Assembly (NCBI GenBank): GCA_963780985.1
Contig: CAWAEF010000031.1
Coordinates: 86,100 to 150,099 of the forward strand
Source: an uncultured Alphaproteobacteria bacterium
GTDB lineage: Bacteria; Pseudomonadota; Alphaproteobacteria; JAGOMX01
DNA length: 64,000 nucleotides
Reading direction: 5' to 3'
The notes beneath the pieces are model-generated. The model did not search any database. It was not told the origin of the DNA and saw only the letters and a program-made list of their open reading frames with translations. The translations under genes and the position numbers were made by a program. Shown in pieces: positions 2,715-30,876 of the stretch. Each line of letters opens with the position of its first letter. Position 1 is the first letter of the stretch.

Positions 2715-3455
2715 GGAAGTCAGAAACCAGAATCCGGAAACCGGAAACCAGAAACCGGAAACCAGAAACCGGAAACCAGAAACCGGAAACCAGAAACCAG
2801 AATCCAGAATCCGGAAACAAGAAACCAGAATCCGGAAACCGGAAAACAGAATTCAGGATTATTAGTTCAGCCCACAGCAACCGTCATCCTGAACGAACGA
2901 CCGCGAAGCGGGCGGTAGAGAAGGATCCAGTTAGACATGTGTGAGCGCAGCGAACTCCTTATTAACCTTCTCGCCCCAACGAAGTTAGTTTCGAGTTCGC
3001 TACGCTCACACAATTGCGCTGGATCCTGTCCAGCAACGCTTCGCTTATGCCGCTCGAGGATGACGGCCGCTGGGGCGGGATCGGTGACCTAAGGCACACT
3101 AAACTGGACTCCAGAAACCAGAAACCAGAAACCAGAAACCAGAAACCAGAAACCAGAAACCAGAAACCAGAAACCTGGATTATTAGTTCAGCCCCCAGCA
3201 ACCGTCATCCTGAACGGACGACCGCGAAGCGGGCGGTAGTGAAGGATCCAGTTAGACATGTGTGAGCGCAGCGAACGCCTTATTAGCACTCTCGCCCCAA
3301 CGAAGTTAGTTTCGAGTTCGCGACGCTCACACTATGTGCGCTGGATCCTGTCCAGCAACGCTTCGCTTATGCCGCTCGAGGATGACGGCCGCTGGAGGCG
3401 GAATCGGTGACCTAAGACACACTAAACTGGATTCCGGATTCCGGATTCTGGATTC
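2715..3455. repeat. composite repeat block: heptad array, palindromic core B1, heptad array, core B2, inverted heptad array
   Basis: 20 RGAAWCC heptads at 2715-2857. Core at 2883-3063. (CCAGAAA)x9 perfect at 3111-3175. Core at 3204-3386. 4 inverted heptads at 3429-3455. Confidence 0.9.
3111..3175. repeat. perfect 7-bp tandem repeat (CCAGAAA) x 9.3
   Basis: Read directly from the sequence: ccagaaaccagaaacc... with no mismatch. Confidence 0.95.
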
Positions 3456-3463
3456 TAACCTTA

Positions 3464-4932
3464 CTAAATACTATAATACATCTCAAACTCAATCGGATGC
3501 GGCACCCTTGAGAACATATGAATTTCCTCTTGTTTGATCCCGATATAGGCATCAATCAGATCATTGGTAAACACATCCCCCTTCAGCAGGTATTCACGAT
3601 CCTCGTTGAGCGCACGAACAGCATCCTGCAGCGACGTGCACAAAAGCCCGTACTTGTTCTCGCCATGCTTTGTTTCGTACAAATTTATATCCAGGGCCTC
3701 TCCGGGGTGGATCTTGTTTTGTATACCATCCAAACCAGCCATCATCATTGCCGTCAAGGCTAAATACCCATTGGCAGTCGCGTCGGGGAAGCGCACTTCA
3801 ATACGCCTCTGTCGCGGTTCAGGAATGTGGGGATCCTCAGCGCCGCGGAACGATTGCGCGCCGAGTATGCAATGTAAACAGGTGCTTCAAAGCCCGGAAC
3901 CAGTCGTTTATAACTATTCGTCGTCGGATTGGTAAACGCATTCAATGACCGGGCGTGATGGATGATGCCGCCGATGTAATGCAGGGCCAGTTCAGACAGT
4001 CCGCCATATTCATTGCCTGGGAACAGGGGCTCCCCATTCTTCCACAGGGACTGGTGCACATGCATCCCAGAACCATTGTCGCCATAAATGGGCTTGGGCA
4101 TAAACGTAACAGTCTTGTTGAAATTATGGGCTACATTGCGAATCACATATTTGAACAGCTGCAGGTTATCACCGGTCGTCAGCAGGTCAGCGTACTTAAA
4201 GCCAATCTCGTGCTGACCGGATGCCACTTCATGGTGATGCTTGTCGCCATTCAGTCCCATGGTATTCATGACCGACAACATCTCCGCCCGAAGGTCATTG
4301 GCCGAATCCACCGGCGGCACAGGGAAATAGCCCTTGCCAGGCAGCATCTTATGGCCAAAATGACGCATATGCCCTTTGGTGTTCAATAAAGAGCTATTCG
4401 GATAGGCACCTTCGGTCCAGTTGATATTATAAAAGGAATTTTGTGGGCTGGTCTCATAATGCACTTCATCAAAGATAAAGAACTCAGGCTCAGGTCCAAA
4501 ACGCGCCTCATCGGCAATACCTGTCTGGCGCAGGTATTCTTCACCCTTTACAGCCACAGAACGCGGGTCGCGGGAATACTGCTTACCCGAGGATGGCTCA
4601 ACCACACTGCAGAACACGATCAACGTCGTATGTTCAGTCAGCTGGTCAAATACCGCATTGGTAGAATCCGGGGAAAGCAACATGTCAGAATCATGAATCG
4701 GCCGCCAGCCAGTTATCGAAGAGCCATCAAACATAAGTCCATCGCAAAGAGTCGCCTCATCTAGAGCATTCTTGTGCACCGATAGATGATGCCAGACACC
4801 CTGCATATCCGTGAAACGAAAGTCGACGTATTCAGCCCCGCCATCGTTGACTTGCTTCATGATGCGCGCCGCATGTTCCTTGCGAGAGCTGTTAAATGAA
4901 TCGTAAGAACTGGTTTTAAGTGCCTTTGACAT
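3464..4932 (-). pseudogene. glnA: glutamine synthetase type I, interrupted by one frameshift near 3817-3830
   Basis: The 390-aa ORF (3760-4932) carries GSI motifs (KPIYGDNGSGMHVHQSLW, YSARNRSAALRIP). The 110-aa ORF (3464-3796) is the GSI C-terminus (RFPDATANGYLALTAMMMAGLDGIQNKIHPGE). The second frame reads back as PEPRQRRIEVRFPD, so the two pieces join with a 1-nt shift. Confidence 0.85.
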
Positions 4933-9454: not shown

Positions 9455-10366
9455 ATGGCAAGACTCGTCTTATATTTATTGTTATGTCTTCCGGGGGCTA
9501 GTCTAGCATCGGCTCCTGACAGCCCGGATAATAATCCCATGGAACAGTCCGGCATGCTCCGCTCATGGTTCCAGAGCAAACCCCAATTCATCCCCAGAAG
9601 AAGCAGCTCCACGTTCTTTGACATAGAATGGGGCTCTTCCGATAATGAGGCAGACAGCGCCGCCAAACCTAAACTTGAGACCGCGTACCTTAAGATCGTA
9701 GCAGCTTCTGCAGATCCTTTAGTCTTCAACGTATACACAAAGTGTCTGACCACTTACTGCAAACTGGTTATTCAAGAAAAAAAGTACACTGTCAGTGATC
9801 AGCTTATGGAGCAGCTTACTACCTTTGAATCATACTCTCTCAGTAGCATGGAAGAATATCGACTCAACTCCAATTTCTCCAGCGGCATGAACCGTTGGTT
9901 ACCCAGCCGTGATTCGCGAGTTCTTTGGATTGTGCGCCATCCTTTCTCCTTTCGTTGGCCGACCATTGACATGTATGATGATATCCAAAAGCTGCGAGCG
10001 GCGTATCCCGTGGCGGCAGACTATGTCGATTTTTTATTCAAAGTAACACCTCCCTCCTTCAATATCGAGTTCTTAGCCGCCAGGGCACGTGAAAATTGCA
10101 AGCGAGGCGTCAATGCCGTGGAGCTATTGACACTGTTCGCCTTGCACGCATTCGGTCACGGTAAGATGTATGACCTAAATCTTGCAAAGCAAGAAGCGGA
10201 AAAGCTGCGCCTGTCCTTTGGCGCAACGTCTGCATCCACCATATATCAAATCATGGATGCCCATGATAAGTGCCTCTCTACGGGCTTACTTTTTTCCGAT
10301 GATGACCTCGCAGCCAATTTACTATCGGATGGAGACGATGATTTCATGAGTGCCGATGGTTTGTGA
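9455..10366 (+). CDS. hypothetical secreted protein
   Basis: GGAGG RBS, signal-peptide-like MARLVLYLLLCLPGASLASA and an acidic C-terminus. I recognise no family. Confidence 0.55.
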   Translation: MARLVLYLLLCLPGASLASAPDSPDNNPMEQSGMLRSWFQSKPQFIPRRSSSTFFDIEWGSSDNEADSAAKPKLETAYLKIVAASADPLVFNVYTKCLTTYCKLVIQEKKYTVSDQLMEQLTTFESYSLSSMEEYRLNSNFSSGMNRWLPSRDSRVLWIVRHPFSFRWPTIDMYDDIQKLRAAYPVAADYVDFLFKVTPPSFNIEFLAARARENCKRGVNAVELLTLFALHAFGHGKMYDLNLAKQEAEKLRLSFGATSASTIYQIMDAHDKCLSTGLLFSDDDLAANLLSDGDDDFMSADGL

Positions 10367-10589: not shown

Positions 10590-10859
10590 ATGTATACATC
10601 AAGGCATCTGTCATACATAGGGAAGGTCCGACTTGGGTTAATATCCCTCGTTGTTATAGCCCTGATTCTTAACGCATTTTTCAGTGTATCAGGTACGTTT
10701 GAGTCTCCCTCTCCGGGGCGGGCCATTTTTCTAGACATGGGAAGGCCTCACCAGCACGCAGTTGCCACCTTCAATCAAGCGGGAATTTACTATGAGGGGA
10801 TAGGTGACCCTTATGATCGCGGGTATTTCATGTCCCTTACTCCTACTATTTTGTCCTAA
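10590..10859 (+). CDS. hypothetical small membrane protein
   Basis: 89-aa ORF with one hydrophobic helix (LGLISLVVIALILNAFF) in an AT-rich gap. Coding status is uncertain. Confidence 0.25.
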   Translation: MYTSRHLSYIGKVRLGLISLVVIALILNAFFSVSGTFESPSPGRAIFLDMGRPHQHAVATFNQAGIYYEGIGDPYDRGYFMSLTPTILS

Positions 10860-10923
10860 TGGTTCATAAATCATACATGATGAATATCCCCAGTCAAAGA
10901 ATGCCTAATAGGGCAAAATAAGT

Positions 10924-10938
10924 TTAACAAAAAGTTAA
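10924..10938 (+). promoter_or_regulatory. CtrA-box-like site TTAA-N7-TTAA upstream of the giant repeat protein gene
   Basis: TTAACAAAAAGTTAA lies about 170 bp upstream of the ATG at 11106. The context is AT-rich, so a chance match is plausible. Confidence 0.2.
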
Positions 10939-11105
10939 AAACTGTGAAAATTGAAAACACAGCCACAATAGTTGTGCTAGAATGTAATTATGGACAAGTA
11001 AGAATAAGCTAATTATCGATAAGTATTATATAGTAACTCCAGGTAATCTGCGATCTTGGTTTTACGGTAAAGAATTTAACGGTGAAGAGATAGGGATATA
11101 GTATC

Positions 11106-14100
11106 ATGAAAGACTTTAAAGATTACGAGAAAATGGTAAAAAGCAAGAGGCATAACGTCCTGCCCCTCCTGATGCTCGTTGACCTAAATCTAGATAAAAT
11201 CCTCGATTGGATCCATGAGGGTCACTTTAAGCCTCTTCCTGACCATTCTGGAAATCACGAATTAACAACTGTGGCAGGCCATAGCGGCGTGATCTTTGCA
11301 GACGGTGCGTCAGATCTTCTGACTTACGCTGCCAGTACAGTTCCAGTAGATCCTGTTTATATGGAGACAGCCGCACATACAAAACCCCACCATTCACATG
11401 ATCTTGATTATGATGAGGCCAAGGACAAGGTCGTGCCAGAAGGTCATGCGAATCAACAGAAGTCAGAATCTGACGGAAACTTCGATTACAGTGGCTCAGC
11501 AAGCGTAAATTTCGTGCATCCTGGTATATCTACGGACTGGTCGCAAACATTGGCCGGATCCAAGTTCGCTGGCGTGACCGCCCCTGCAGGCTTTGGCACT
11601 ATAGCCCCAGATAATTTTTATAGCGGCATTCGTGTAACGGGCGCCCTATTGCCATACTCAGGCGGCGCGGACTTTTTGCCCGCCGATGATTATTTCAGTG
11701 GTAGCGCCGGTCTTTTGAGCGCTTTGAGCCCCGGGCTAGCTCCTCTAGGGTTGAGTCGTGAGATTGATCCCTTGATTCCAGTGCCCCAAATCCACTTTCT
11801 TGAGGAGGAAGAGAACGTCCCCCAGGTACAGTACATACCGGTTCATAACTATATTCCACCAAATCTTCCACCAATGCACATGTGTATGCTTGCGTTGACC
11901 TATCCCGTATTGAACCCTACCCCGATCTACGATATGCCTTGCGATTCACGTTCGGGCAACCTCGTCATAGATTCTGGTGCCTATGATAACGATGGCTCAC
12001 CTATCCATGTGGACTCGGTGTCCTTTGATGCGGGAACTTCCTCACCAGGTATTTCAGCCGGCCCAGGTGTTATTACGGACGGGCACGAAATCATAACGAT
12101 TTATTTTGATGGTACCATCGAGATTGGAACCTTGAATGTGAACCTATCAACAGGAGCATACACTTATGCGAATGCACCTGGTGCCGATAAGCTGCCCATA
12201 GGCGCCAATATTATAGAGTTTCAGTTCGTCTTAGGTGAAGCCGGGATGAGCTGCACAGCCACGGGCACGTTGAACGTGACCGTCGAGGGCGGTAACTGTA
12301 TGATCACTATTCCCGAGCCTATACTTAACCCACCTCCTATCTGGGATGACATGTGCTCATCGCTTTCTGGCAACATCATCGTGGATTCCGGTGCTTACGA
12401 TGGTAATGGCACGCCTATTCATGTGGACTCCGTATCCTTTGATGCCGGTACATCTTCCAAAGGCATAACCGCCGGTTCTCCTGATCTGACAAGTGTACCT
12501 GGCCATGAGCTTATCAATGTCTTTTATGACAGCACCGAGATTGGTACCCTGAATGTAACTTTGGCAACCGGTGCTTATACCTATTCCAATAGCGCCAATG
12601 CGGACGTTTTGCCCGAAGGCAAGAACGTTATTGAGTTCAACTTCACTCTCGGTGATGGTATGGAAGGCTGCGGCTGTGGTTGCACAGCCACTGGTACACT
12701 GAACGTGACCGTCGAGGGCGGCAGTTGCATGATCACCCTTTGCGAGCCTATTCTTAACCCACCTCCCATCTATGATGACATGTGCGCATCGGTTATGGGT
12801 AACATCATTGTCGATTCCGGTGCGAGCGATGGCAATGGCTCACCTATCCATGTGGACTCCGTTGCCTTTGATGCCGCTACCTCTTCCAAGGGCATCACTG
12901 CCGGTACTCCAGATCTGACATCTGTCCCTGGCCATGAGCTTATCAATGTCTTTTATGACAGCACCGAGATTGGCACGCTGAATGTAACTTTGGCAACCGG
13001 TGCTTATACTTACGCCAATAGCGCCAACGCAGACGTTTTGCCCGAAGGCAAGAACGTTATAGAGTTCAAATTCACGCTCGGTGATGGTATGGACGGCTGC
13101 GACTGTGGTTGCACAGCCACTGGCACACTGAACGTGACCGTCGAGGGCGGCAGTTGCATGATCACCCTTTGCGAGCCTATTCTTAACCCACCTCCCATCT
13201 ATGATGACATGTGCGCATCGGTTATGGGTAACATCATTGTCGATTCCGGTGCGAGCGATGGCAATGGCTCACCTATCCATGTGGACTCCGTTGCCTTTGA
13301 TGCCGCTACCTCTTCCAAGGGCATCACTGCCGGTACTCCAGATCTGACATCTGTCCCTGGCCATGAGCTTATCAATGTCTTTTATGACAGCACCGAGATT
13401 GGCACGCTGAATGTAACTTTGGCAACCGGTGCTTATACTTACGCCAATAGCGCCAACGCAGACGTTTTGCCCGAAGGCAAGAACGTTATAGAGTTCAAAT
13501 TCACTCTCGGTGATGGTATGGACGGCTGCGACTGTGGTTGCACAGCCACTGGCACACTGAACGTGACCGTCGAGGGCGGCAGTTGCATGATCACCCTTTG
13601 CGAGCCTATTCTTAACCCACCTCCCATCTATGATGACATGTGCGCATCGGTTATGGGTAACATCATTGTCGATTCCGGCGCTGCCGATGGCAATGGCTCA
13701 CCTATCCATGTGGACTCCGTTGCCTTTGATGCCGGTACCTCTTCCAAGGGCATCACTGCCGGTACTCCAGATCTGACATCTGTCCCTGGCCATGAGCTTA
13801 TCAATGTCTTTTATGACAGCACCGAGATTGGCACGCTTAATGTAACTTTAGCAACCGGTGCTTATACTTACGCCAATAGCGCCAACGCAGACGTTCTGCC
13901 CGAAGGCAAGAACGTTATAGAGTTCAAATTCACGCTCGGTGATGGTATGGACGGCTGCGACTGTGGTTGCACAGCCACTGGTACACTGAACGTGACCGTC
14001 GAGGGCGGCAGTTGCATGATCACCCTTTGCGAGCCTATTCTTAACCCACCTCCCATCTATGATGACATGTGCGCATCGGTTATGGGTAACATCATTGTCG

Positions 14101-17100
14101 ATTCCGGTGCGAGCGATGGCAATGGCTCACCTATCCATGTGGACTCCGTTGCCTTTGATGCCGCTACCTCTTCCAAGGGCATCACTGCCGGTACTCCAGA
14201 TCTGACATCTGTCCCTGGCCATGAGCTTATCAATGTCTTTTATGACAGCACCGAGATTGGCACGCTGAATGTAACTTTGGCAACCGGTGCTTATACTTAC
14301 GCCAATAGCGCCAACGCAGACGTTTTGCCCGAAGGCAAGAACGTTATAGAGTTCAAATTCACGCTCGGTGATGGTATGGACGGCTGCGACTGTGGTTGCA
14401 CAGCCACTGGCACACTGAACGTGACCGTCGAGGGCGGCAGTTGCATGATCACCCTTTGCGAGCCTATTCTTAACCCACCTCCCATCTATGATGACATGTG
14501 CGCATCGGTTATGGGTAACATCATTGTCGATTCCGGTGCGAGCGATGGCAATGGCTCACCTATCCATGTGGACTCCGTTGCCTTTGATGCCGCTACCTCT
14601 TCCAAGGGCATCACTGCCGGTACTCCAGATCTGACATCTGTCCCTGGCCATGAGCTTATCAATGTCTTTTATGACAGCACCGAGATTGGCACGCTGAATG
14701 TAACTTTGGCAACCGGTGCTTATACTTACGCCAATAGCGCCAACGCAGACGTTTTGCCCGAAGGCAAGAACGTTATAGAGTTCAAATTCACTCTCGGTGA
14801 TGGTATGGACGGCTGCGACTGTGGTTGCACAGCCACTGGCACACTGAACGTGACCGTCGAGGGCGGCAGTTGCATGATCACCCTTTGCGAGCCTATTCTT
14901 AACCCACCTCCCATCTATGATGACATGTGCGCATCGGTTATGGGTAACATCATTGTCGATTCCGGTGCGAGCGATGGCAATGGCTCACCTATCCATGTGG
15001 ACTCCGTTGCCTTTGATGCCGCTACCTCTTCCAAGGGCATCACTGCCGGTACTCCAGATCTGACATCTGTCCCTGGCCATGAGCTTATCAATGTCTTTTA
15101 TGACAGCACCGAGATTGGCACGCTGAATGTAACTTTGGCAACCGGTGCTTATACTTACGCCAATAGCGCCAACGCAGACGTTTTGCCCGAAGGCAAGAAC
15201 GTTATAGAGTTCAAATTCACTCTCGGTGATGGTATGGACGGCTGCGACTGTGGTTGCACAGCCACTGGCACACTGAACGTGACCGTCGAGGGCGGCAGTT
15301 GCATGATCACCCTTTGCGAGCCTATTCTTAACCCACCTCCCATCTATGATGACATGTGCGCATCGGTTATGGGTAACATCATTGTCGATTCCGGCGCTGC
15401 CGATGGCAATGGCTCACCTATCCATGTGGACTCCGTTGCCTTTGATGCCGGTACCTCTTCCAAGGGCATCACTGCCGGTACTCCAGATCTGACATCTGTC
15501 CCTGGCCATGAGCTTATCAATGTCTTTTATGACAGCACCGAGATTGGCACGCTTAATGTAACTTTAGCAACCGGTGCTTATACTTACGCCAATAGCGCCA
15601 ACGCAGACGTTCTGCCCGAAGGCAAGAACGTTATAGAGTTCAAATTCACGCTCGGTGATGGTATGGACGGCTGCGACTGTGGTTGCACAGCCACTGGCAC
15701 ACTGAACGTGACCGTCGAGGGCGGCAGCTGCATGATCACCCTTTGCGAGCCTATTCTTAACCCACCTCCCATCTATGATGACATGTGCGCATCGGTTATG
15801 GGTAACATCATTGTCGATTCCGGCGCTGCCGATGGCAATGGCTCACCTATCCATGTGGACTCCGTTGCCTTTGATGCCGGTACCTCTTCCAAGGGCATCA
15901 CTGCCGGTACTCCAGATCTGACATCTGTCCCTGGCCATGAGCTTATCAATGTCTTTTATGACAGCACCGAGATTGGCACGCTTAATGTAACTTTGGCAAC
16001 CGGTGCTTATACCTATTCCAATAGCGCCAACGCTGACGTTCTGCCCGAAGGCAAGAACGTTATTGAGTTCAACTTCACTCTCGGTGATGGTATGGAAGGC
16101 TGCGGCTGTGGTTGCACAGCCACTGGCACACTGAACGTGACCGTCGAGGGCGGCAGCTGCATGATCACCCTTTGCGAGCCTATTCTTAACCCACCTCCCA
16201 TCTATGATGACATGTGCGCATCGGTTATGGGTAACATCATTGTCGATTCCGGCGCTGCCGATGGCAATGGCTCACCTATCCATGTGGACTCCGTTGCCTT
16301 TGATGCCGGTACCTCTTCCAAGGGCATCACTGCCGGTACTCCAGATCTGACATCTGTCCCTGGCCATGAGCTTATCAATGTCTTTTATGACAGCACCGAG
16401 ATTGGCACGCTTAATGTAACTTTAGCAACCGGTGCTTATACTTACGCCAATAGCGCCAACGCAGACGTTCTGCCCGAAGGCAAGAACGTTATAGAGTTCA
16501 AATTCACGCTCGGTGATGGTATGGACGGCTGCGACTGTGGTTGCACAGCCACTGGCACACTGAACGTGACCGTCGAGGGCGGCAGTTGCATGATCACCCT
16601 TTGCGAGCCTATTCTTAACCCACCTCCCATCTATGATGACATGTGCGCATCGGTTATGGGTAACATCATTGTCGATTCCGGCGCTGCCGATGGCAATGGC
16701 TCACCTATCCATGTGGACTCCGTTGCCTTTGATGCCGGTACCTCTTCCAAGGGCATCACTGCCGGTACTCCAGATCTGACATCTGTCCCTGGCCATGAGC
16801 TTATCAATGTCTTTTATGACAGCACCGAGATTGGCACGCTTAATGTAACTTTAGCAACCGGTGCTTATACTTACGCCAATAGCGCCAACGCAGACGTTCT
16901 GCCTGAAGGCAAGAACGTTATAGAGTTCAAATTCACTCTCGGTGATGGTATGGACGGCTGCAGCTGTGAATGCACAGCCACTGGCACACTGAACGTGTCA
17001 GTCGAGGGCGGTAGTTGCGAGATTACTCTTTGTGAGCCAGTGCTCAATCCAGCTCCTATCTGTGCTATGCCTTGCGATTCCGTAGCAGGCAATCTGGTGG

Positions 17101-18725
17101 TTGACACTGGTGCCCATGATACTGACAATGCCGGTATTACCGTGAGCAACGTGGCGTTTGATGCCGGTAGCTCATCCAGTCATATCACCGCTGGTGCGGG
17201 TCTGGTGTCCAATGGGCATGAAATAATTACGGTTTACTTTAATGGCACCACCGAGATTGGCACCTTGAATGTGAACTTGAGCACAGGCGCTTATACCTAT
17301 AACAATACCGCTGGCGCTGAGAATCTTCCCGATGGTCCTAACACCATTGAGTTTAAGTTTACTTTGAGCGATAGCATGGACGCCGATGGCTGTATGTGCG
17401 GCTGCTCCGTCGATGCTACCTTGAATATCACCGTGGTCGGCGACGAAGGCTGCAAGATTACTCTCTGCCAGCCAGTGCTTAACCCACCAGCTATCTGTGA
17501 TGACACTTGCGATTCTGTTAATGGCAACCTGGTGGTTGACACCGGTGCTCATGACAACGAAAATGCGGGTATTACCGTGAGCAGCGTTGCGTTTGACGCC
17601 GGCAGCTCATCCAGTCATATCACCGCCGGGGCAGGTGTGGTGTCCAATGGGCATGAGACCTTTGCAGTATACTTTAGTGGTGCCGAGATTGGTACGCTGA
17701 ATGTGAACTTGAGCACAGGTGCTTACACCTATAACAATACCGCTGGTGCTGAGAATCTCCCCGATGGCCTTCACACCATTGAGTTTAATTTCACCTTGAG
17801 TGATAGCATGAACTCTGATGGTTGTATGTGCGGCTGCTCGGCTGATGGTGTCTTGAACATCTCCGTGGCCGGCGATGAAGGCTGCAAGGTTACTCTTTGC
17901 GAGCCTGTACTCAACCCATGTCTTATCGGTGATGCGCCTTGCGTTTCCGTTGTCGGCAACCTTGTGGTTGACACCGGTGCTCATGATAACGATGGTGCTG
18001 CGATCCATGTGAGCAATGTGGCGTTTGATGCGGGCAGTTCTTCCACAGGAATTACTGCGGGGGCGGGCGTTATTTCAAATGGACATGAAGATTTTAATGT
18101 TTACTTTGATAATAATGTCCAGATAGGGACTTTGGATGTCAATCTCAGCAGTGGTGCTTATACCTATTCGAATACGGCTGGTGCTGAAAAGTTGCCTATG
18201 GGTGATAACACCATCGAGTTTAATTTTACTCTGGATGATGGCATGAGCTCCAAAGATTACGGCTGTGATTGTTCAGCGCAAGGTACATTGAACGTTTCCG
18301 TCCTCGGTGCGGGCGATGTAATCGTTAACCATTGCTCGGATAAATTTGGCAGTGGTGATAGCTATATCTTTGATGTGGAGACGGGCAGTAATGGTAAGAT
18401 ATGCTTAGCCGGGGCGCAACAAGATCTAATATTAAATTATAACGGTGCAGATTGTTTTGAGTTCGACGACCATACCGCAAACGGGGTACTATGTGCTTTA
18501 GATAAGCTGCACGATAATCATCTTACCAGCGGTGAGTGCAATCAGGCCGAGCTTAATAATTTAGGCATAACATGCACTGTAGGCCACTATGGTCCGGACC
18601 CAAGCGCCATCGATACAAAGATCAGCTTTGCGGGCGGCGGCTGCATCATCATACAGAATTGCAGTGATACCCAATTTGCTGAACATCTGATTGCAGCTGG
18701 GAAGTGCGAGGTTTCACACGCATAA
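11106..18725 (+). CDS. giant repetitive surface/secreted protein with 15 VCBS-like (cadherin/Ig-like) 143-aa modules, Cys-rich
   Basis: 2539-aa ORF. The module ...IHVDSVAFDA..GTLNVTLATGAYTYANSANADVLPEGKNVIEFKFTLGDG... resembles the VCBS repeat pattern. Each module has 6 Cys (LC, MC, GCDCGC, SC). There is no N-terminal signal peptide. Confidence 0.85.
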   Translation: MKDFKDYEKMVKSKRHNVLPLLMLVDLNLDKILDWIHEGHFKPLPDHSGNHELTTVAGHSGVIFADGASDLLTYAASTVPVDPVYMETAAHTKPHHSHDLDYDEAKDKVVPEGHANQQKSESDGNFDYSGSASVNFVHPGISTDWSQTLAGSKFAGVTAPAGFGTIAPDNFYSGIRVTGALLPYSGGADFLPADDYFSGSAGLLSALSPGLAPLGLSREIDPLIPVPQIHFLEEEENVPQVQYIPVHNYIPPNLPPMHMCMLALTYPVLNPTPIYDMPCDSRSGNLVIDSGAYDNDGSPIHVDSVSFDAGTSSPGISAGPGVITDGHEIITIYFDGTIEIGTLNVNLSTGAYTYANAPGADKLPIGANIIEFQFVLGEAGMSCTATGTLNVTVEGGNCMITIPEPILNPPPIWDDMCSSLSGNIIVDSGAYDGNGTPIHVDSVSFDAGTSSKGITAGSPDLTSVPGHELINVFYDSTEIGTLNVTLATGAYTYSNSANADVLPEGKNVIEFNFTLGDGMEGCGCGCTATGTLNVTVEGGSCMITLCEPILNPPPIYDDMCASVMGNIIVDSGASDGNGSPIHVDSVAFDAATSSKGITAGTPDLTSVPGHELINVFYDSTEIGTLNVTLATGAYTYANSANADVLPEGKNVIEFKFTLGDGMDGCDCGCTATGTLNVTVEGGSCMITLCEPILNPPPIYDDMCASVMGNIIVDSGASDGNGSPIHVDSVAFDAATSSKGITAGTPDLTSVPGHELINVFYDSTEIGTLNVTLATGAYTYANSANADVLPEGKNVIEFKFTLGDGMDGCDCGCTATGTLNVTVEGGSCMITLCEPILNPPPIYDDMCASVMGNIIVDSGAADGNGSPIHVDSVAFDAGTSSKGITAGTPDLTSVPGHELINVFYDSTEIGTLNVTLATGAYTYANSANADVLPEGKNVIEFKFTLGDGMDGCDCGCTATGTLNVTVEGGSCMITLCEPILNPPPIYDDMCASVMGNIIVDSGASDGNGSPIHVDSVAFDAATSSKGITAGTPDLTSVPGHELINVFYDSTEIGTLNVTLATGAYTYANSANADVLPEGKNVIEFKFTLGDGMDGCDCGCTATGTLNVTVEGGSCMITLCEPILNPPPIYDDMCASVMGNIIVDSGASDGNGSPIHVDSVAFDAATSSKGITAGTPDLTSVPGHELINVFYDSTEIGTLNVTLATGAYTYANSANADVLPEGKNVIEFKFTLGDGMDGCDCGCTATGTLNVTVEGGSCMITLCEPILNPPPIYDDMCASVMGNIIVDSGASDGNGSPIHVDSVAFDAATSSKGITAGTPDLTSVPGHELINVFYDSTEIGTLNVTLATGAYTYANSANADVLPEGKNVIEFKFTLGDGMDGCDCGCTATGTLNVTVEGGSCMITLCEPILNPPPIYDDMCASVMGNIIVDSGAADGNGSPIHVDSVAFDAGTSSKGITAGTPDLTSVPGHELINVFYDSTEIGTLNVTLATGAYTYANSANADVLPEGKNVIEFKFTLGDGMDGCDCGCTATGTLNVTVEGGSCMITLCEPILNPPPIYDDMCASVMGNIIVDSGAADGNGSPIHVDSVAFDAGTSSKGITAGTPDLTSVPGHELINVFYDSTEIGTLNVTLATGAYTYSNSANADVLPEGKNVIEFNFTLGDGMEGCGCGCTATGTLNVTVEGGSCMITLCEPILNPPPIYDDMCASVMGNIIVDSGAADGNGSPIHVDSVAFDAGTSSKGITAGTPDLTSVPGHELINVFYDSTEIGTLNVTLATGAYTYANSANADVLPEGKNVIEFKFTLGDGMDGCDCGCTATGTLNVTVEGGSCMITLCEPILNPPPIYDDMCASVMGNIIVDSGAADGNGSPIHVDSVAFDAGTSSKGITAGTPDLTSVPGHELINVFYDSTEIGTLNVTLATGAYTYANSANADVLPEGKNVIEFKFTLGDGMDGCSCECTATGTLNVSVEGGSCEITLCEPVLNPAPICAMPCDSVAGNLVVDTGAHDTDNAGITVSNVAFDAGSSSSHITAGAGLVSNGHEIITVYFNGTTEIGTLNVNLSTGAYTYNNTAGAENLPDGPNTIEFKFTLSDSMDADGCMCGCSVDATLNITVVGDEGCKITLCQPVLNPPAICDDTCDSVNGNLVVDTGAHDNENAGITVSSVAFDAGSSSSHITAGAGVVSNGHETFAVYFSGAEIGTLNVNLSTGAYTYNNTAGAENLPDGLHTIEFNFTLSDSMNSDGCMCGCSADGVLNISVAGDEGCKVTLCEPVLNPCLIGDAPCVSVVGNLVVDTGAHDNDGAAIHVSNVAFDAGSSSTGITAGAGVISNGHEDFNVYFDNNVQIGTLDVNLSSGAYTYSNTAGAEKLPMGDNTIEFNFTLDDGMSSKDYGCDCSAQGTLNVSVLGAGDVIVNHCSDKFGSGDSYIFDVETGSNGKICLAGAQQDLILNYNGADCFEFDDHTANGVLCALDKLHDNHLTSGECNQAELNNLGITCTVGHYGPDPSAIDTKISFAGGGCIIIQNCSDTQFAEHLIAAGKCEVSHA
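12290..17010. repeat. tandem array of 11 near-identical 429-bp units inside the giant gene
   Basis: Antisense marker ORFs recur every 429 bp from 12581 to 16871. The units differ by only a handful of SNPs. Confidence 0.95.
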
Positions 18726-21957: not shown

Positions 21958-21984
21958 GTTACATACTCCTTTCATAATTATTTT

Positions 21985-22110
21985 CTTAACAACTCAGATA
22001 GTGCGTTAGCTACGTGTGAAAGCCGAGCACCGGAGCGGAGCGTACTTTTGGGTACGTGAGCACCGGAGCGCAGGCTTTCGCGCGTAGATGACGTGCTAGG
22101 TGAGTTGTTG
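21985..22110. repeat. family E palindromic element (TIR AACAACTCA), copy E1
   Basis: This roughly 125-bp imperfect palindrome has a reverse-complement copy at 60715-60840. It overlaps the last 5 codons of lpxD. Confidence 0.9.
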
Positions 22111-24720: not shown

Positions 24721-25241
24721 GGGCTCTGCCCAAACCCCGGGATATATAAAAGAAACCCAGAGATCATTATCCTCGATCAAGTAATTTCAATGGAAGAGGG
24801 GCGGCCTAAGCCACCCCTCAATCTCTGGTTTTCTGCGGCCATCGGCGTCCCCGCCTGTACCGCATTCACAGAATTATCATATTTCCGTTTTAAAACGACT
24901 CAAATTTTAATTGCCTCACTCGACCTCATCGTGCAATGCAGTCCTAGTGCCCCGAATCATTAATTCTGCCCCCGGGGCCCGTCATTCTGAAACGGACGAC
25001 CGCGAAGCGGGCGGTAGTGAAGAATCCAGTTAAACATGTGTAAGCGCAGCGAACTCTTTATATAAACTACTCGCCCCAAGTAGGCTAGTTACGAGTTCGC
25101 TAAGCTCACACTATTGCGCTGGGCCCTGTTCAGCAACGCTTCGCCTATGCTGCTCAGGACAACGATCAAGGGGGTAGAATTAGTGATTCGGCATTTAGAA
25201 CCCATCTCTGGGTTCTACAACTATGGTTTGGGGCAGAGCCC
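24721..25241. repeat. nested repeat: family D inverted ends enclosing a type-B palindromic core
   Basis: GGGCTCTGCCCAAACC..AAACCCAGAGAT at 24721-24770 is mirrored at 25198-25241. A B-type core lies at 24981-25164. A further D end is at 41320-41370. Confidence 0.8.
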
Positions 25242-25957: not shown

Positions 25958-26330
25958 GGCTCTTATGCAAAACGGGTGGGTTGGATGTAATATTCTGCCC
26001 CTGCAGACGTCATCCTGAACGGACGACCGCGAAGCGGGCGGTAGTGAAGGATCCAGTTATAGATGTGTCGCGTAGCGACTCTGCTTATAAGTATACCCAC
26101 TATACAAATGTTACAGCCAGCTGTCGACATGACGTTAAAAATGGGGCCATCTACAGTAGAGTCGCTTCGCGACGCATGTCTTACTGGATCCTTCACTACC
26201 GCCCGCTTCGCGGTCGTCCGTTCAGGATGACGGGAACCGGGAGCCGTGAATATTCTCCTTGCAATTATCCTCATTCACATTCAGTTCAGGATAATGACTA
26301 CCCATTACCCACCCGTTTTGCATAAGAGCC
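25958..26330. repeat. family A element, copy A2
   Basis: It has the same termini and central block (CATGACGTTAAAAATGGGGCCATCTACAG) as A1, A3 and A4. Confidence 0.9.
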
Positions 26331-30559: not shown

Positions 30560-30876
30560 GACCATTTCAAAGCCCCATTTCACCTCTCCCCTTGTGGGAG
30601 AGGTCCGGAGCGAAGCGTAGGGGTGAGGGGTGCCAACAAGCAATATTCATAACCCTCACCCGGCCTTCGGCCGACCTCTCCCACAAGGGGAGAGGTATTT
30701 ATTAGCCTCCAAATGGAGTGTTTTCACCTCTCCCCTTGTGGGAGAGGTCCGGAGCGAAGCGTAGGGGTGAGGGGAACCAACAAGCAATATTCATACCTCT
30801 CAACCGGCTTTGGCTGACCTCTCCCGCAAGGGGTAAGGTAATTCTACACCGACAGATGTAGGGTTTTGAAACGGCC
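30560..30876. repeat. two tandem copies of the family F palindromic element (CACCTCTCCCCTTGTGGGAGAGGTC ... GACCTCTCCCACAAGGGGAGAGGTG)
   Basis: Internal palindromes are read directly. Further copies lie at 45051-45238 and 45402-45570 (inverted), with a truncated copy at 40226-40282. Confidence 0.9.

Follow-up and report, generated by a model that had tools for sequence, protein, structure and literature searches.

Giant repeat adhesins that are exported through a type I secretion system (T1SS) are believed to acquire their fold in the extracellular space, by binding Ca2+. The substrates of this system are typically free of cysteine (Cys), and RTX proteins contain either no Cys or a single one (PMC6891781), in agreement with a sequence-only reading of the DNA described here, which held that such adhesins are normally Cys-poor. 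That DNA is a stretch of 64,000 nucleotides (the window) from an uncultured alphaproteobacterium, and the gene under study is a complete open reading frame (ORF) on its forward strand (11106..18725), which encodes a Cys-rich protein of 2539 amino acids (aa). Its closest relative is a 2637-aa protein annotated 'RTX family hemolysin domain protein / calcium-binding protein' (WP_331255303.1) from Candidatus Bealeia paramacronuclearis, a member of the Holosporales that lives in Paramecium as an endosymbiont.

It is proposed, with moderate confidence in the explanation as a whole (export and Cys roles included), that the product of the window gene is a giant and strongly acidic fibre protein located outside the cell or on its surface, most probably an adhesin or a spacer. 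The stalk of the fibre would consist of 15 cadherin-like modules, each a beta-sandwich, arranged in tandem. The protein would be exported unfolded, C-terminus first, via a T1SS encoded elsewhere in the genome, with its 134-aa tail acting as a degenerate, RTX-less secretion domain. A disulfide between two conserved residues, C0 and C128 in the numbering of a single module, would tie strand A to strand G within each domain, and additional Cys would form disulfide staples by which the module junctions become rigid once the protein has been exported.

The ORF described in the sequence-only reading is confirmed and intact, and its product has a mass of 260 kDa, an isoelectric point of 4.05, 315 Asp and Glu residues versus 58 Lys and Arg residues, and 97 Cys (3.8%), where about 90 had been counted. 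The protein has a three-part layout. An N-terminal region of 260 aa (11106..11885), rich in His, Gly, Ala, Pro and Ser and with C260 as its sole Cys, is followed by the 15 modules (aa 261–2405) and by a tail of 134 aa (aa 2406–2539; 18321..18722), the candidate secretion domain. Modules 1 and 2 (aa 261–541; 11886..12728) are diverged copies with three and five Cys; modules 3–12 (aa 542–1971; 12729..17018) are ten near-identical copies of 143 aa (429 bp) with a full six-Cys pattern; modules 13–15 (aa 1972–2405; 17019..18320) are diverged again and share 54–59% identity with the core module. The earlier count of 15 modules is correct; in order, they measure 138 aa, 11 times 143, 145, 144 and 145 aa, and comprise nine distinct sequences. 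Several Cys do lie near the C-terminus, nine of them in the tail, but the part outside the modules is 134 aa long and not 230.

The Bealeia protein carries 12 extended modules (per-domain E-values down to 9e-32) with 30–39% identity to those of the window protein. The two proteins are similar in size, share the same extended module, lack a Sec signal and have no T1SS genes beside them; their C-terminal domains are colinear and weakly similar. They differ in that the N-terminal third of the Bealeia protein is built from other domain types, in which TIGR01965 is matched directly, and in that this protein has six GGxGxD nonapeptides and a HemolysinCabind match; the window protein has neither RTX repeats nor a TIGR01965 match. 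Furthermore, the Bealeia protein contains 40 Cys (1.5%), placed regularly at two per module, compared with up to seven per module in the window protein. Those two occupy the same positions, C128 and C143 (equivalent to C0), in every internal Bealeia module. The linker Asp is kept in the Bealeia modules (GDAPC, GDDQC), whereas the window linker VEGGSC is without ND. Since Cys-bearing modules of this family were already present in an annotated RTX protein, the variant that the sequence-only reading did not recognise has a precedent. Together, the window protein with its 97 regular Cys and the Bealeia protein with its 40 Cys and true RTX repeats represent a rare VCBS/cadherin-like extender branch with a conserved Cys pair, to which the window protein adds a Cys cluster at the domain junction.

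The giant Bealeia gene is intact in assembly JAVHWZ01 (2637 aa) and is divided into ORFs of 1019, 249 and 1250 aa in the complete genome CP133270.1; the two copies lie at L084 6092-13753 and L085 10001-17914. The split reflects either strain-level pseudogenisation or errors of repeat assembly or frameshifting. Downstream of the Bealeia gene lie an insertion sequence with a DDE transposase and a second repeat protein of 1140 aa. A review of the Holosporales mentions neither T1SS nor adhesins.

The module is a divergent, enlarged VCBS/Cadherin_4-type bacterial cadherin-like unit outside the curated models, as judged from profile comparison and structural modelling. Two alignments were used: A2, a broader module-family alignment of 20 sequences, and A1, a narrow module profile. 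Comparison of A2 with true TIGR01965 (VCBS) units by hhalign gave a probability of 96.9% and an E-value of 1.9e-10 over 102 columns covering the whole unit, with an insertion of 25–30 residues separating the DxDG-like loop from the GTL...GAYTY hairpin. An exhaustive HMMER search of 1.84 billion representative proteins, using a profile of six diverse modules, recovered only 16 proteins at E <= 1e-3, 12 of them at E < 1e-10; the per-domain table assigns a near-full-length extended module to about ten of these 12. The 16 proteins form three groups, namely those with the full-length module (P0002-P0006, P0008 and P0010-P0012), classical VCBS/tandem-95 proteins and marginal matches. The profile thus retrieves TIGR01965/Cadherin_4/Big_9 proteins: P0007, P0009 and P0013 are classical VCBS/tandem-95 proteins matched over the C-terminal half of the module, and P0007 (E 9e-19) and P0009 (E 8e-13) score 468 and 142 bits with TIGR01965.

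Structure prediction of the module, which the sequence-only reading had proposed as a check, points the same way. An AlphaFold2 model built from A2 is all-beta, with a pLDDT of 90.3 and a pTM of 0.85; a prediction of two modules without an alignment reached a pLDDT of only 35. The best Foldseek matches to this model in the PDB are the split domain of FrhA, an RTX adhesin of V. cholerae (23–24% identity), an MpAFP fragment and many extracellular cadherin (EC) domains, at modest strength (E about 2e-3, TMq 0.40–0.48, probability about 1.0). The A2 profile also matched the FrhA chain sequence at E 2.5e-4. Sequence searches of the PDB with A1, the whole protein, the 303-aa product of a neighbouring ORF and a tail profile found nothing significant. 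Because hhalign, the AlphaFold2 model and Foldseek agree, the VCBS/cadherin-like assignment of the sequence-only reading is correct as far as homology and fold are concerned, which profile retrieval also supports, but not as regards curated profile membership.

The sole Pfam family to which the modules showed similarity was CBM_6, which remained under threshold for each module (15.7 and 23.4 bits versus a cut-off of 28.9); its whole-protein score of 110 bits is the sum of many weak repeats. A CBM6 (PF03422) identity was rejected on these sub-threshold per-domain scores and on the absence of any CBM6 structure from the top 50 Foldseek matches; in the PDB sequence search, a CBM6-containing xylanase was matched at E 0.22 only. 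Top6b_C and Topo_VI_alpha were likewise dismissed as false matches produced by repeat summing. The misleading whole-protein E-values of the three families (CBM_6, 8e-32; Top6b_C, 1e-10; Topo_VI_alpha, 6e-8) call for caution in the automatic annotation of this giant gene. As the module escapes the curated VCBS, cadherin and Big models, members of the family are annotated as hypothetical or mis-matched as CBM_6.

Homology to the VCBS (TIGR01965), Cadherin_4 (PF17803) and Big_9 (PF17963) units of BapA/LapF-type adhesins and RapA2 extends across the whole unit. The shared elements are the GN-l-i-D..D.DG motif, the (Y)GTL.v...tGaYtYt motif and strands F and G, and in both groups the units form tandem arrays in large acidic proteins. 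In the window module, the DxDG-like loop is kept as DSGASDGNG and the extra 25–30 aa separate it from the GTL hairpin. The NDAP linker of VCBS units is replaced: the window linkers, VEGGSC in modules 1–12 and GDEGC in modules 13 and 14, align to ...GSNDAP without matching the xNDAP motif. The true VCBS matches P0007 and P0009 contain no Cys, in contrast with the Cys-bearing window modules. N-glycosylation sequons are not significantly enriched in the modules (three per module versus an expected 1.5 ± 1.1).

The RTX adhesins FrhA (9y9w/9ybq), MpIBP/MpAFP (5k8g) and LapA provide the best structural matches (E 2e-3, TMq 0.45, 23–24% identity), although this similarity is modest. They share with the window protein a common plan, in which a long extender array is followed by a C-terminal export region (a candidate only in the window protein). 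Unlike them, the window protein has no recognisable retention module, beta-roll, split domain or ligand-binding domain, and it is rich in Cys where RTX proteins have none or one (PMC6891781). A different set of relatives is formed by metagenomic proteins with Sec-dependent export (P0003, P0004, P0005 and L088 7198-8343), which carry the same extended module at E-values of 1e-30 to 1e-37, complete with C0 and C128. These proteins differ in being only 380–440 aa long, with one or two modules, cleavable signal peptides, knottin-like Cys-rich domains and poly-Thr linkers, and in coming from hosts of high G+C content.

Beyond these proteins, relatives are few. In a word-indexed database of 5.8 billion proteins, the whole protein retrieved only itself and A2 only one Bealeia fragment. 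A metagenome scan returned same-strain contigs and one unrelated Sec-type protein only, and a scan of genome contigs found no relatives.

Alignment of all modules with those of the relatives shows that two of the six Cys positions are common: C128, before the last strand, and C143, after it. C143 is absent from terminal modules (window module 15, P0004, P0005 and module 2 of P0003), and the single-module proteins have a Cys directly before the first strand, as the first residue after the linker; C260 has the same position relative to window module 1. Given that terminal modules lack C143 and single-module proteins begin with a Cys, 'C143' would, in the simplest interpretation, belong structurally to the following domain, as its C0. 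Counted in this way, with C260 included for module 1, all 15 window modules have both C0 and C128, and the two co-occur in Bealeia modules and in the Sec-exported single-module proteins. Modules of other lineages (P0008 and P0010-P0012) contain no Cys at all, so no Cys is needed for the fold. Strands A and G run parallel in cadherin-type folds. From the co-occurrence and the fold, C0 and C128 are probably linked, within one domain, by a disulfide that joins the start of strand A to that of strand G. The C0/C128 pair defines a small, unnamed sub-family of the extended VCBS module (about 140 aa), to which the Bealeia RTX protein, P0003-P0006 and L088 belong and whose features all 15 window modules show.

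The pattern C5, C19, C124, C126, C128 and C143 is exact in modules 3–12 and thus in ten of the 15 modules, not in each of them as the sequence-only reading had it. Fewer Cys are present in module 1 (three) and module 2 (five); seven, with an additional C15 among them, are present in each of modules 13 and 14, and module 15 has five, with C12 present and C124 and C143 missing. The GCDCGC cluster had been placed at every module boundary. It occurs in eight modules, with the CxCxC variants GCGCGC (two modules), GCMCGC (two), GCSCEC (one) and GCDCS (one) in others and no cluster in module 1, and it lies 15–20 residues ahead of the boundary, in the loop preceding the last strand. C5, C19, C124 and C126, together with the occasional C12 and C15, were seen in the window protein only. 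The expectation that orthologues would conserve all six positions was not borne out: the nearest relatives share just two, and no orthologue was found outside the species. The extra Cys cluster is so far unique to the window species; the Cys-bearing module itself has its precedent in Bealeia.

In cadherin-type domains, interdomain Ca2+ sites are formed by the linker together with the F–G and B–C loops of the following domain. The hhalign comparison places C143/C0 at the A of NDAP in the linker ...GSNDAP and the CxCxC cluster in the F–G loop. By analogy, the extra Cys may lie at the N-terminal, inter-module face, where cadherin linker Ca2+ sites are located; their placement and role are the least secure part of the proposed explanation. 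Such a location suggests that the cluster supplements or replaces the junction Ca2+ sites, by forming either disulfide staples or a metal site with thiolate ligands.

Several observations bear on whether the array is real. Tandem Repeats Finder detects 11.2 copies of a 429-bp unit with 97% identity (12252-17038) and, after them, 2.4 copies of a 432-bp unit with 80%. The ten copies that form modules 3–12 vary at only 26 nucleotide positions. Diverged paralogous modules have evolved under purifying selection, with a ratio of nonsynonymous to synonymous substitution rates (dN/dS) of 0.11–0.22. The first 1.4 kb and the last 1.9 kb of the gene are 100% identical on metagenome contigs of other samples, all of which break inside the array. 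Breaks within repeat arrays are usual for short-read assemblies. The gene and the module are real; the number of near-identical units, ten in this assembly, is less sure and may be off.

A number of results count against the proposed explanation. At the family level, TIGR01965, Cadherin_4, Cadherin_5 and Big_9 gave no match at E = 10 with the whole protein or with single modules, so the TIGR01965, cadherin and BIg searches put forward in the sequence-only reading yielded nothing directly. With respect to export, no T1SS ATP-binding cassette (ABC), membrane fusion (MFP) or TolC component was found among the ORFs of at least 150 aa scanned against Pfam in the 64 kb, as had been noted before; the scan took in all but a few shadow or overlapping ones. 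G[GAS]xGxD repeats are absent from the window protein, compared with six in Bealeia, HemolysinCabind is not matched, and one degenerate GSGDSY is the sole RTX-like remnant. No retention module was detected with Pfam or NCBIfam in aa 1–260, no T1SS C-terminal model matched, and the N- and C-terminal regions have no homologue in the word-indexed database of 5.8 billion proteins. T1SS substrates bypass the periplasmic Dsb machinery and typically lack Cys (PMC6891781). For the four extra Cys, no orthologue outside the species was available for comparison. Finally, an odd number of Cys is present in each of modules 1, 2, 13 and 14 and in the protein as a whole (97), which means that not every Cys can be disulfide-paired within a module. 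Compared with the minimal features of an RTX adhesin (bioRxiv 10.1101/2025.09.30.679566), the protein has the extender array and lacks the RTX beta-roll, a recognisable retention module and the typical near-absence of Cys; it falls outside that definition because no RTX repeat, retention module or T1SS C-terminal model was matched. These same absences, together with that of T1SS genes from the 64 kb, would suit a protein that is not a T1SS substrate at all, and that either leaves the cell by another Sec-independent route or stays inside it with reduced Cys in a non-adhesive role. Such a protein would also agree with how weakly the tail resembles the post-RTX C-terminus of the Bealeia protein (BLASTP, a single pairwise comparison; E 4e-4, 23% identity over 122 columns). 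The alignment is nonetheless colinear, opening with GxDxfxxDV and containing the element ...F..GG.IIQN...; the tail has no match among curated models or in the PDB. Every relative of the module with readable targeting is exported, through RTX repeats in Bealeia and through Sec signal peptides, accompanied by Cys-rich or poly-Thr domains, in the others. Furthermore, a very acidic composition and homology to VCBS/cadherin units are characteristic of extracellular fibres that depend on Ca2+. A non-T1SS or intracellular protein is therefore considered unlikely. Export by a T1SS-like system appears to be the most likely route, with moderate confidence, because a Sec signal is absent and the closest relative has genuine RTX repeats, and because the tail aligns with that of Bealeia, the Bealeia gene also has no adjacent T1SS and all readable relatives are exported. 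The lack of a Sec signal, previously noted, is borne out by a maximum 19-aa Kyte–Doolittle mean of 1.34, which leaves no Sec-type hydrophobic segment and no membrane span. The label of type I-secreted adhesin fits the extender array and remains probable rather than demonstrated for a protein without RTX repeats. If the protein is T1SS-exported, a substrate with 40–97 Cys would be notable, and it may be asked how disulfides form in a substrate that bypasses Dsb, and whether disulfides or metals can stand in for Ca2+ as a stiffening principle.

The extra Cys (C5, C19, C124 and C126, with or without C12 or C15) might instead form one metal–thiolate site per junction, holding Zn, Cu(I), Cd or Fe in the same fold and at the same location, and such sites could serve as a structural replacement for Ca2+ or make the fibre an extracellular metal sink or sensor. 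In modules 3–12, CxCxC and two further Cys amount to four potential ligands, and module 15, in which C124 is lost and C12 gained, keeps the number at four; the odd counts in modules 1, 2, 13 and 14 suit a loss-tolerant ligand set better than strict disulfide pairing. The cluster also lies, according to the alignment and established cadherin knowledge, on the face at which cadherin-type domains bind interdomain metal. However, Cys4 metal sites are uncommon in oxygen-exposed extracellular proteins, and module 1 has one of these Cys and module 2 three, yet both modules are otherwise well conserved. No metal-related gene lies beside the giant gene, and a cation-efflux gene 40 kb away is uninformative. 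A metal site is thus thought possible but improbable, and disulfide staples are preferred as the role of the extra Cys. A more far-reaching idea is that the Cys cluster (C0, C5, C19 and CxCxC) replaced the Ca2+ linker chemistry, so that oxidation or thiolate–metal binding drives folding and stiffening after RTX-less, Sec-independent export. It is held only as a doubtful proposal; if true, the protein would represent a giant adhesin gated by redox state or metal and would break the rule of Cys-free type I substrates. The array or its copy number could also be an assembly artefact, or the gene a decaying pseudogene. Giant repeat adhesin genes are often misassembled (bioRxiv 10.1101/2025.09.30.679566), the ten 429-bp units vary at so few positions, the short metagenome contigs all end within the array, and the Bealeia homologue is in three ORFs in one assembly. 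Against this explanation stand a frame open over 7620 nt, structured variants among the units (for example, three substitutions common to modules 10 and 2), the independent confirmation of both unique gene ends and a dN/dS far under 1; it is considered very improbable.

Upstream of the giant gene lies an AT-rich intergenic region of 246 bp (10860..11105, forward strand). It contains a putative promoter-like site (10924-10951) and a weak purine-rich stretch, GAAGAGATAGGGA, that ends 10 nt 5' of the ATG, both on the forward strand and both consensus matches only. The wider neighbourhood in the 64 kb consists of fpg, a gene for a PAS-GGDEF-EAL protein, two ORFs without a family, the lpxB-lpxI-lpxA-fabZ-lpxD genes, a flagellar cluster and central metabolism; LpxI and a sigma-54 activator within the flagellar cluster are among the products encoded. 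The two family-less ORFs separate the PAS-GGDEF-EAL gene from the giant gene. One, of 303 aa (9455-10366), begins 25 nt after the GGDEF-EAL gene and has a signal-peptide-like N-terminus; the other, of 89 aa (10590-10859), has a single hydrophobic span. No match in Pfam or the PDB was obtained for either, and they keep their position only in same-species metagenome contigs. They may act together with the giant protein, in an accessory or regulatory role. An identity as LapG/LapD-like partners was considered for them, and no family matched.

On the 3' side, the stop codon of the giant ORF (18723-18725) lies inside the convergent lpxB ORF, which ends at 18649, so that the two 3' ends overlap by 77 bp. 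The LpxB Pfam match stops 36 residues short of the lpxB stop codon; it may be that LpxB can do without its tail, or that the overlap is real.

Elsewhere in the window, the product of glnA (3760-4932) shows at most 56% identity to its counterparts among 185,579 GTDB species representatives, none of which is closely related to the organism, and its best matches are spread over Alpha-, Beta- and Gammaproteobacteria. The gene content is that of a Gram-negative, flagellated organism with a lipid A pathway of the LpxI type. A 564-aa ORF at 48262-49956, without a Pfam family, coincides with the stretch of lowest G+C content (40% versus about 49%) and may be foreign DNA. Self-BLAST revealed dispersed intergenic repeats. 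The first family (461-813, 2780-3435, 24956-25159, 25958-26306, 42594-42788, 52940-53256 and 56431-56779) has units of about 75–350 bp with 77–93% identity, in both orientations and partly self-complementary, including two tandem copies at 2780-3435. A second family occupies 30567-30871, 45063-45231 and 45400-45570, and an inverted pair of 129 bp, 97% identical, lies at 21981-22109 and 60716-60844. These intergenic repeats look like miniature inverted-repeat transposable elements (MITE) or repetitive extragenic palindromic (REP) elements.

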